39,299 bases of DNA from sequence record PP079212.1; one strand, given 5' to 3'. Positions 28,455-31,700 of this stretch are shown here, piece by piece. Position 1 is the first letter of the stretch, and each line of letters opens with the position of its first letter. Below the pieces are notes generated by a model that saw nothing but the letters and a program-made list of their open reading frames with translations, had not been told where the DNA came from and searched no databases. The position numbers and the translations under genes are program-made. The DNA comes from Escherichia phage phiHAO2-2.

Positions 28455-28751
28455 ATGGCGACTCGTGGTATTCGCAATAACAATCCGGGTAACATCCGGG
28501 TAAGTAAGGACCAATGGGAAGGAATGACTGGAGATGATGGCACATTCGTCACCTTCGATAGTCCAGAGTCTGGCGTCCGAGCTTTAGGTAAAAACCTGCT
28601 GTCCTACGGTCGCCGAGGTTATGACTCCATCGAGAAGATTATCAACCGATGGGCACCTCCTAACGAGAACGACACTAAGGCTTATATCGACTCAGTGGTG
28701 GCTGCAACTGGTATTCCAGCTACCCAGAGTTCTAGACCTATCGGATCCTGA
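28455..28751 (+). CDS. Internal virion protein D (gp16), N-terminal segment before the frame break
   Basis: ATG 28455 preceded by TAAGGAGT. This frame ends at TGA 28749-28751 while the protein-like sequence continues in the +1 frame. Carries the motif RNNNPGNIR. Confidence 0.6.
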   Translation: MATRGIRNNNPGNIRVSKDQWEGMTGDDGTFVTFDSPESGVRALGKNLLSYGRRGYDSIEKIINRWAPPNENDTKAYIDSVVAATGIPATQSSRPIGS

Positions 28752-31700
28752 CACCCTGTCTTCTCTGGCTCAAGCTATAAGCTTCCATGAGACAGGCTCC
28801 CGGTACGACCCTGAAGTCTATCAGAAGGGAGTCGCACGAGCACTCAATGGCATAACCCCAAAGACTCCACCAGTAAGCGCTAACGTATTTGACGCACTCA
28901 CGGAAGGACTCAAGGCTAAACCTAAAGTAGCTCTGGGCGAGAACCTTCCGACCGCTGCTGGTCTAAACATTGAGGGTCAAGCACCTGAAGCTCCCAACGA
29001 ATCGTTCGGTGAGATGTTCTATAAGTCTACTGGCGAGACCATGCAGGAACGAGAGGATCGCTCTACGTGGTTCGGTTTCGGCTCGGCTACAGAAGCTGAA
29101 GTGAAGAACTCTATGGTCGGTGTGGCTATCCGCGCTGGTCAGACCGAGGACTCACTTGATGTCATTGGCGATGTGTTCAACCCTACCCGCTGGAACAACC
29201 ATAAGTGGTCTCGTGAGGAGCTGGACCAGATTCGTAACGCTGGAGTTCTCCCTCAGTATTACGGTGTCATTACTGGTGGCTCCCCTCAGAACCTGACCGA
29301 GCTTATTAACTTAGCGCTTGAGAACCAGAAGTTGGACCAAGAGAAGGCCAAGGCTGGGACTGGTGCTCAGTTAGCTGCTGGTGTGATTGGCGCTGGTGTG
29401 GACCCTCTGACCTACGTTCCTATCGCTGGACAGATTGGTAAGGGTGGCAAGCTGGTCAACAAGATGTTCACCGTGGCTGCTCAATCTGGAGCACTTGCTG
29501 GTGTATCAGAGATGGCCCGTACCTCAGTGGCTGGTGGTGATGCTCATGTGGCTGAGGCTATCCTTGGCGGTGCTCTCTTCGGTGGAGGTATGACTGCTAT
29601 CGCTGATGGTTTAGGCAGAGCCTTAGGTCGTAACACTAACGAGTTCGCTGGACCAGCCATACGTCTGGAAGCTCGTGAGACAGCCCGTAACGTTGATGGT
29701 CAGGACCTGTCTCGTCTACCTATTCAAGAAGGTGAGGAGACCTTTAGTCATCAAGGCGTTAAGTTCGCTGACGTTCCGAATGAGCCGGGTAGTGTACGAC
29801 TGGAAGATGGTTCAATCCTGATTGGTGAAAACCCTCTGAACCCTAAGACACGTCAAGTCTTTGACGAAGTGATTGAGCCAGAACGTGCCGCTGCTGGTGT
29901 GAACCTTGGTGGACTTACCGAGATTGGCCTGAAGCTGCTTCGGTCTGAGAACCCAGAGATTCGTGGAGTCGCTGCTGACTTAGTGCGTTCACCAACCGGT
30001 ATGCAGTCAGGGGCCTCAGGTAAAATCGGGACCACTGCGTCAGACGTATTCGAGAGACTTCGTGCTGTGGACCATCGGTTCTACAACGACATCGACGATG
30101 CGGTTACTGAGGCACTAAAGGACCCATACTTCCAGACAGCATTCTGGCGAGACTCTGGCGCATTCCGTCAGGACATCTACCAGCGTGTGTCTATGGCTAT
30201 TGAAGACGGAAGTGGGAACCTGAAGGCTGAACTTACTCCGGGAGAACTGAAAGTCTATGACCTGCTGAAGAACCAGTTTGACGCCAAGCGTGAGATGATG
30301 GAGAACCCGGCGATGTTTGGTCGTCCAGACGCTCAGTCTATCTTTCCGGGTAGCCGCTTCAAGGGAACCTACGTCCCTCATGTGTATAGCAAACAGATGA
30401 AGGAGCTGTACATCAAGGAGCTTGGGAGTCCAGAGGCGTTGCAGGAGGCCATCAAGAAGTCATGGTTGACCAGCTATGCGTCTCGACCTGAGGTCAAGAA
30501 ACGTGTGGACGAGGCACTCTTAGAGGCTGACCCTACGTTGACTCCAGAGGGACTTGCTGCTGCGGTCGATAAGTACGCCAACGATAAGGCTTACGGTATC
30601 TCCCACACCGAGCAGTTCGAACGTTCATCCGTAATGGAAGAGAACATCAACGGTCTGGTTGGTCTGGAGAACAACAGCTTCCTTGAGGCTCGTAACCTGT
30701 TCGATAGCGATATGTCAATCGTCCTACCTAACGGTCAGACCTTCAGTGTCAACAACCTACGTGAGTGGGACATGGACAAGATTGTCCCGGCCTACAACCG
30801 TCGAGTTAATGGCGATATTGCTATCATGGCTGGTACAGGCAAAACCACGAAGGACATGAAGGACTTGGTTGAGACCATGATGAACAAGGCTGGGGATGAC
30901 GGTAAGTTGAAAGGTGAAGTATCTACCTTACGTGACACCTTGAAGATTCTAACAGGTCGTGCTCGACGTGATGGTGCTGATGATGCAGCCTTCGCTACCG
31001 TGATGCGCACAATGACAGACCTATCGTTCTTCGCTAAGAATGCCTACATGGGTGTTCAGAACTTAACGGAGATTGGTGGTATGCTGGCTCGTGGCAACGT
31101 TCGTGCAATGCTGCATGGAGTCCCGATTTTCCGTGACCTAGCCTTCCGTAACAAGAAGGTTGGGGCCTCAGAGATTAAGGACCTGCATAATGTTATCTTC
31201 GGTAAGGAACTGGATGACTCAATCCGTCCGTCTAAACAGGATGTCATTGACCGTCTGCGATCTTACAGTGACCTCGGTCGTGGTACAGCTACAGCTCTGG
31301 GGACTGCCAAGTATTACACTGGCGAACTTGCAGTACGCTCTCCGTTCACTAAAGTCCTCAACGGTACGACCAACTACCTGTTAGATGCTGGACGTCAAGG
31401 CTTCCTGTCTGACATCGTGGAGCATAGCCTGACTGGTAGTAAGCGTAAGTTCGATGACCGCTGGCTGAAGACCGCTGGTATATCTGACGAGCAGTGGAAT
31501 GGTATTAAGTCCCTAATCCGTGAGTCAGTGACTCGTGGTCCAGACGGGAAGTATACCATCAAGGATAAGAAGGCGTTCAGTCAGGACCCAAGGGCTATGG
31601 ACCTATGGCGTATGGGTGACACCATCGCTGACGAAACGTTACTACGTCCTCATAAGCTGTCCAACATGGACGCAAAGGCTTATGGTCCTCTAGCTAAGAC

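Follow-up and report, generated by a model that had tools for sequence, protein, structure and literature searches.

Gene 16 of Escherichia phage phiHAO2-2 (PP079212.1) is, in the 39,299-nt stretch of DNA analyzed here (the window), an ordinary K1F-type gp16 gene carrying a single-base lesion, an extra T at 28730..28731, and there is nothing biologically new about it. The extra T is probably an error of sequencing, base calling, consensus building or assembly in the record, in which case the gp16 of the real phage would be intact, with 1,295 codons. The locus holds a normal Kayfunavirus gene 16 for the internal virion (ejection) protein D, made up of an Enc34-type muramidase domain and a T7-gp16-like body, with its frame broken by one extra T at 28730/28731. 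On this reading, the extra T would be neither evolved nor designed, and the restriction sites next to the break would be by-products of natural polymorphism.

Genome context and the broken gp16 reading frame

The window is a complete or near-complete genome of a Kayfunavirus, a K1F-like phage of the T7 supergroup. Its closest relative in GenBank is Escherichia phage phiHAO1-1 (PP079211), to which it is 99.4% identical over 22670-39299 and ~98% identical across most of the remaining sequence; to Escherichia phage K1F it is about 96% identical. The gene order around gp16, which is flanked by gp15 (26168-28450) and the endosialidase tail spike gp17 (32408-35602), is the same in both phages. The gp16 parts described here lie on the given strand.

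The gp16 start codon, ATG 28455, is preceded by a good Shine–Dalgarno (SD) sequence (dG -8.7 kcal/mol). The ORF that it opens (28455..28751) has 98 codons, namely 92 authentic gp16 codons and 6 out-of-frame ones, followed by a premature TGA (28749..28751) that the insertion has put in frame; its frame-0 product thus reads ...GIPATQS, then SRPIGS, and stops. The rest of gp16, codons 93-1295 and the stop (28732..32343), lies in the +1 frame, which after the break carries ...LDLSDPDTLSSLAQAISFHETG... up to 32343. The mechanical ORF of 1,240 codons found here (28621-32343) opens at an ATG, 28621, that is out of frame with the N-terminal part. In tblastn searches with the gp16 of K1F and of phiHAO1-1, residues 1-92 map to 28455-28730 in frame 3 and residues 93-1295 to 28732-32340 in frame 1. 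Identity to phiHAO1-1 gp16 is 100% over residues 1-92 and 99.67% over residues 93-1295, identity to K1F gp16 is 97%, and PHROG 342 matches the protein with E = 0. Every coordinate that the original prediction gave for the break (ATG 28455, TGA 28749-28751 and the +1 continuation) and for the XbaI, BamHI and HindIII sites beside it proved correct. The interval of 28730-28750, in which it had placed the shift, could be narrowed by tblastn and alignments to the extra T at 28730/28731, and the 100% match to phiHAO1-1 identifies the ORF at 28455 as the true gp16 N-terminus.

The insertion is seen as a TT at a place where all relatives have just one T. It adjoins the sequence TCTAGA, and which of the two Ts is the added one is ambiguous. 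In nucleotide alignments, the window reads GAGTTCTAGA, where all relatives have GAGTCT(C/A)GA. Removal of one T yields an ORF of 3,888 nt that encodes a gp16 of 1,295 aa, and 3,888 nt is also the annotated gp16 length in K1F, phiHAO1-1, PR_Kaz2018, BUCT788, ASO2B, Mt1B1_P3 and phiYIO1-1. In the homolog alignment proposed with the original prediction, a single-nucleotide indel brings back full collinearity. That prediction had also allowed for homologs with two separate genes at this place; all examined relatives carry one uninterrupted gene, as judged either from its annotation as one CDS or from a tblastn match in one unbroken piece. Compared with other Kayfunavirus gp16 genes, the window has the expected position, full-length collinearity and muramidase domain, and its ORF is interrupted.

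The insertion is private to the window in a panel of eight genomes (the window and seven relatives). It is private also in a whole-genome alignment of three genomes, where it is the sole private short indel in conserved coding DNA. It was not found in the 11 IMG/VR contigs that were aligned, nor in pattern scans of IMG/VR, JGI metagenomes and GTDB genomes. Exact-word searches requiring the TT matched none of 50,697 GenBank phage records, while a neighbouring query of the same length, used as a positive control, matched 41 records. Exact look-ups of the 98-aa fragment, the product of the 1,240-codon ORF and gp15 matched no record. With the first 251 residues of the repaired gp16 as a tblastn query, 215 phage records cover at least 80% of it, and in a 60-row sample from the ranking of these records the gp16 N-terminal matches were all single uninterrupted pieces. 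When 47 proteins of phiHAO1-1 and 40 of K1F were mapped onto the window, gp16 was the only one whose frame was split by a lesion. A small hypothetical protein of K1F also maps in split form, which is owed to K1F's own sequence; its phiHAO1-1 counterpart is found in the window in a single frame, at 100% identity.

The K1F protein (YP_338126) and its phiHAO1-1 equivalent, gp44 (XAI67817), lie at the same position and have the length of the repaired gp16, 1,295 aa; the window differs from both in that the extra T leaves a 98-codon ORF and a start-less remainder of 1,203 codons. The products of XAI67817 and YP_338126 are named internal virion protein D or "internal virion protein with endolysin domain". 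A solved homologue is also available (PDB 9VVP, chain L), which the repaired gp16 matches with E = 4.7e-190.

The muramidase domain cut by the break

Gp16 of phage T7 (PDB 7EYB, 7K5C, 6YT5) shares with the window protein its role as a component of the ejectosome (PMC8954989) and is collinear with it from window residue ~125 on (E = 2e-34 over residues 125-290). The two differ at the N-terminus, where T7 gp16 has a lytic-transglycosylase domain (residues 1-156), whereas the K1F group has an unrelated domain of the Enc34 type. The latter (28461..28821, about residues 3-122 of the repaired gp16) aligns over residues 3-122 with the catalytic domain of the ORF39 endolysin of the Hafnia phage Enc34 (PDB 7Q47, PHA02564; E=1.7e-15). 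Further domain matches are to PHROG 873, 992, 2276 and 7182, families that hold the same module inside endolysins, tape-measure proteins and tail-injection proteins, and to hundreds of stand-alone proteins of ~130-140 aa. A Pfam search of gp16 gave no match, and there is no Pfam model for the N-terminal domain. The first 120-130 residues of K1F-type gp16 are a mobile peptidoglycan-hydrolase module.

In the Enc34 enzyme, the proposed catalytic residue is Glu131 in the last helix (alpha5), while Trp79 and Tyr95 also help to form the active site (PMC8943055). The alignment suggests that W66, Y77 and E112 are their counterparts in gp16, E112 corresponding to Glu131. In the alignment with stand-alone homologues, E112 is nearly invariant, as part of an HExG motif; the codons for the conserved His111-Glu112 pair (28786-28791, with that for E112 at 28789-28791) lie downstream of the break. 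Whereas the Enc34 domain belongs to an endolysin, that of gp16 is fused to an ejection protein of 1,170 aa, and in the record it is split between Y77 and E112: the interruption between residues 92 and 93 leaves W66 and Y77 on the 98-aa product, with E112 beyond it. The true domain boundary is at about residue 123-130, and T7-type gp16 proteins align only from ~123-125 on. The break thus cuts through a folded domain instead of falling between two domains. A natural split gene was rejected on these grounds, with the break at residue 92 of a domain of ~125 residues and a downstream part that has neither a start codon nor an SD sequence.

Restriction sites and the local patch of substitutions

Three restriction sites lie next to the break, each brought about by one synonymous change. 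The XbaI site TCTAGA (28731..28736) arises from 28734 C>A (CTC>CTA, Leu93), the BamHI site GGATCC (28743..28748) from 28746 C>T (GAC>GAT, Asp97) and the HindIII site AAGCTT (28779..28784) from 28779 C>A (ATC>ATA, Ile108). Together with a fourth substitution relative to phiHAO1-1, 28770 G>T in the codon for Ala105, also synonymous, these are, apart from the insertion, all the differences from phiHAO1-1 in the 54-bp interval, and all four fall at third codon positions and are synonymous in the downstream gp16 frame. The patch thus evolved under an intact frame, and therefore the insertion is either younger than the patch or not real.

The XbaI allele is also found, with the frame intact, in wild-type K1F and in two IMG/VR contigs (L013 and L022). 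One of these, L022 (IMGVR_UViG_3300045988_000139; 95% identical overall), carries the XbaI and HindIII alleles together in an intact frame, and over ~28689-28810 is identical to the window save for the extra T and position 28746. Position 28779 is C, T or A across the relatives, and a further sequence (L012) has a T at the third position equivalent to 28746, in the context GAATCC. The GGATCC allele itself, sought in relatives and sequence collections, was found nowhere outside the window, and a search of GenBank phages, whose positive control matched, gave no instance of the AAGCTT allele. Among the three site-creating changes, only that of the BamHI site is private to the window, and the natural origin of the other two sites is established.

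The statement that XbaI and BamHI sites occur elsewhere in the genome was confirmed by a scan of the sequence, which found further XbaI sites at 12288, 12510 and 31911, BamHI sites at 2342 and 34612, and HindIII sites at 18478 and 33215. Sites for 18 common six-cutters are strongly depleted, with 34 in the window versus ~173 expected. Of the trials in which 34 sites were placed at random, 2.4% brought three different sites together within 60 bp, which makes the cluster mildly unusual. A second cluster of three sites (NcoI, NdeI and BamHI, 34583-34617) is shared with phiHAO1-1 and natural, and patches of clustered differences similar to that around the break occur at 26356-26378 and 37457-37604. 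The caution voiced with the original prediction, that the cluster may be coincidental, holds up. We conclude that the three sites arose incidentally from natural synonymous variation, within a short mosaic patch (~28731-28810) whose sequence is like that of an environmental relative.

Three sites within 54 bp do recall a cloning polylinker. Unlike those of a polylinker, the sites lie in native codons, each is the result of one synonymous substitution, and two also occur in wild relatives. A more deliberate form of this explanation would be a designed gp16 knock-out, made by a +1 frameshift with an in-frame TGA and marked with silent XbaI, BamHI and HindIII sites for diagnosis, brought in on an oligonucleotide or synthetic fragment of ~50 nt. 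It would account for three classic cloning sites within 54 bp of a site-depleted genome (P ~0.024), for the silence of all three changes in gp16, and for the fact that the BamHI change and the insertion are both private to the window. We nevertheless regard it as very improbable. Foreign or vector sequence is absent from the interval, where all bases but the extra T align to native gp16 and even the 6 nt between the XbaI and BamHI sites are native gp16 codons. The XbaI allele occurs in wild K1F, and together with the HindIII allele in the intact-frame L022; the position of the BamHI change is polymorphic in nature, as seen in L012; and the cluster at 34583-34617 arose naturally. That a designer should by chance have matched two rare natural alleles is far less likely than shared descent. 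An engineering scar was accordingly rejected, given that L022 and K1F carry the same site-creating alleles in an intact frame. Fill-in mutagenesis of a restriction site was also rejected, since filled-in XbaI, BamHI or HindIII ends would bring four extra bases and the lesion is of one base.

Expression of the downstream part

Past the premature stop, the nearest canonical restart codon (ATG, GTG or TTG) in the gp16 frame is ATG 29014, 263 nt downstream. It lacks SD complementarity, with a dG of -2.3 kcal/mol versus -8.7 to -12.0 kcal/mol for gp12, gp13, gp15, gp16 and gp17, and ATG 28621, the upstream codon at which the mechanical ORF begins, is no better placed. Translational restart was thus ruled out, in the absence of a start or SD signal.

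A programmed frameshift fares no better. The P-site codons at the shift (AGU-U, UCU-A and UCC-U) would, under standard anticodon rules, keep no more than 1-2 base pairs after a shift to the +1 frame, and the sequence upstream of the shift region holds no SD-like stimulator. Local RNA folding is not exceptional compared with shuffled sequences (z = -0.02), and an Rfam search of the shift region matched no family. There is some likeness to programmed +1 frameshifting of the prfB type, in that here too the ribosome would have to shift by +1 immediately ahead of an in-frame UGA that is followed by C; unlike prfB, the window has no CUU-type re-pairing codon, no upstream SD-like element and no phylogenetic conservation of the arrangement. 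Translational recoding was rejected, there being no slippery site, RNA structure, Rfam family or conservation.

T7 morphogenesis and genome translocation both require gp14, gp15 and gp16 (PMC8954989). Since gp16 is essential and no restart or recoding signal is present, a genome that carries the lesion should be unable to propagate alone. The opposite case would be that gp16 is functionally expressed in spite of the lesion, either by +1 frameshifting at UCU-AGA or UCC-UGA-C or by termination and reinitiation at a non-canonical codon such as CTG 28756, so that a full-length or N-terminally truncated ejection protein is made. A rare AGA (28734-28736) and a UGA-C stop context do lie just past the insertion, and T7 depends on the hydrolase activity of gp16, and on the domain that carries it, in some conditions only (PMC8954989), which might make a truncated gp16 tolerable. 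However, the P-site tRNAs cannot re-pair, the upstream stimulator is absent, the folding and Rfam results are negative, no relative has the insertion, and no canonical restart codon occurs within 263 nt. We thus hold functional expression to be highly improbable, and grade in the same way the combined proposition that the TT is real and the phage viable through inefficient +1 frameshifting or reinitiation. If the insertion were real and the phage viable, the Enc34-type N-terminal muramidase domain of K1F-type gp16 would be dispensable, and a T7-like phage could live with a split gp16 and an unusual mode of ejection-protein expression. Nothing in the sequence supports such a viable split gp16.

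Origin of the extra T

Of the four causes that the original prediction had offered, sequencing or assembly error and genuine mutation stay viable, whereas an engineering scar and translational recoding are unsupported. The insertion is either not real or extremely recent, because the local substitutions fit an intact frame, the 1,203 downstream codons are 99.67% identical to those of phiHAO1-1, and the insertion occurs nowhere else. Between these two, we infer an error in the record rather than a true mutation.

The mutational alternative is a genuine and very recent +1 duplication, which would make the gene a gp16 null allele, possibly at the edge of a short gene-conversion patch. The carrier could be a defective or minority genome (metagenome-assembled, from an unpurified population) or one complemented by wild type in the lysate. 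Among spontaneous +1 events, single-base duplication is the most common, the genome shows no other indel problem, and the insertion meets the left edge of the micro-patch of rare alleles (28734, 28746, 28779), which has similar patches elsewhere in the genome. Against this, gp16 is essential (PMC8954989) and the genome, having no restart, cannot propagate alone; the allele is in no other public sequence searched; and the downstream codons show no decay. We therefore take a recent mutation to be possible, though clearly the less probable of the two.

An error in the record, our preferred reading, need not have been a simple random one. The insertion is found where the patch of rare alleles begins on its left side, and a private substitution is no more than 16 nt away. 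A back-of-envelope estimate, which takes the 19 other private positions in 14.3 kb, puts the chance of such co-location by random error at ~4%. This suggests a common cause, such as a junction left by recombination or gene conversion, or a consensus that switches between strains assembled together.

In practical terms, 28455-28751 and 28621/28732-32343 should be annotated as one gp16 with a probable single-base error, or be flagged as a pseudogene or frameshift. Labelling the two ORFs as separate genes, as a recoding site or as an engineering scar should be avoided.

A few further observations concern the nature of the lesion. Apart from gp16, every gene in the window is intact, and such a clean background speaks against a simple random error; it was also the reason for ruling out an assembly that is error-prone in general. 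The context, T>TT with no long homopolymer, is likewise not a classic error context. The extra T repeats the T that precedes the cut in T^CTAGA, an outcome that might, speculatively, follow from an in silico join of an XbaI-cut fragment to one written with the complete site; no such duplication is seen at the window's three further XbaI sites (12288, 12510 and 31911). A literature search on a frameshift in K1F gp16 returned nothing relevant. In favour of an error in the record, broken gp16 annotations are also found in further genomes that have been deposited, one example being the "internal (core) protein" of 56 aa in Enterobacter phage 01_vB_Eclo_IJM.

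Six-cutter sites in phiHAO2-2

The window is strongly depleted in six-base palindromic restriction sites: 18 common six-cutters together have 34, compared with the approximately 173 expected from base composition. A scan of the whole window returned no site for PstI, KpnI, SacI, XhoI, SphI, or EcoRV. This depletion is the restriction avoidance typical of T7-like phages. A second cluster of sites is present in the gp17 endosialidase gene, where three different six-cutter sites, NcoI (34583), NdeI (34590), and BamHI (34612), fall inside 35 bp (34583-34617). All three have counterparts in phiHAO1-1 (PP079211), the closest GenBank relative, at 35422, 35429, and 35451, respectively; since the cluster is kept in this relative, it is natural.

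Differences from phiHAO1-1

In the early region (window 1106-1639, 4888-5932, and 6668-6974), the two phages differ in small accessory genes that have been gained or lost and in a divergent DNA ligase (5935-6981, ~72% amino acid identity), which together account for the 840-bp difference in genome length. Elsewhere, differences are concentrated in micro-patches set in a background of ~99.5% identity, with 7 differences in 23 bp of gp15 (26356-26378) and 13 differences in 148 bp of the terminase large subunit gene (37457-37604). This clustering in the aligned sequences suggests that short gene-conversion events or mosaic exchange are frequent among Kayfunavirus strains.

The phiHAO1-1 record itself appears to carry frameshifts of its own, at approximately 20282-21256 of that record (window equivalent 19736-20650). 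Private 1-nt indels are found in phiHAO1-1 at window-equivalent positions 18070, 19736, and 20249, and the annotation gives its scaffold gene a length of only 116 aa, with a 620-bp gap upstream that has no annotated feature. In the window, gp9 is intact (294 aa, 19769-20650).

The gp16 N-terminal module and its homologs

The N-terminal muramidase module of gp16 (residues 1-130, window 28455-28845) is without a Pfam model, and has hundreds of stand-alone homologs of 130-170 aa, labeled as "structural protein" or hypothetical. Some of these come from metagenomes and bacterial assemblies, Desulfovibrio, Pantoea, and Gallionellaceae among them, and others from further phages, including Salmonella phage SPNIS2 and O157 typing phage 9. 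All of these homologs share the motifs RGIRNNNPGNIR, RWAPPNEN, and HENG.

Public databases also contain further truncated gp16 N-terminal fragments (protein matches P0091 and P0013). P0091, from Enterobacter phage 01_vB_Eclo_IJM and named "internal (core) protein", has 56 aa and diverges after ...KNLMS, and a second fragment is 53 aa long; broken gp16 calls are thus not unique to the window.
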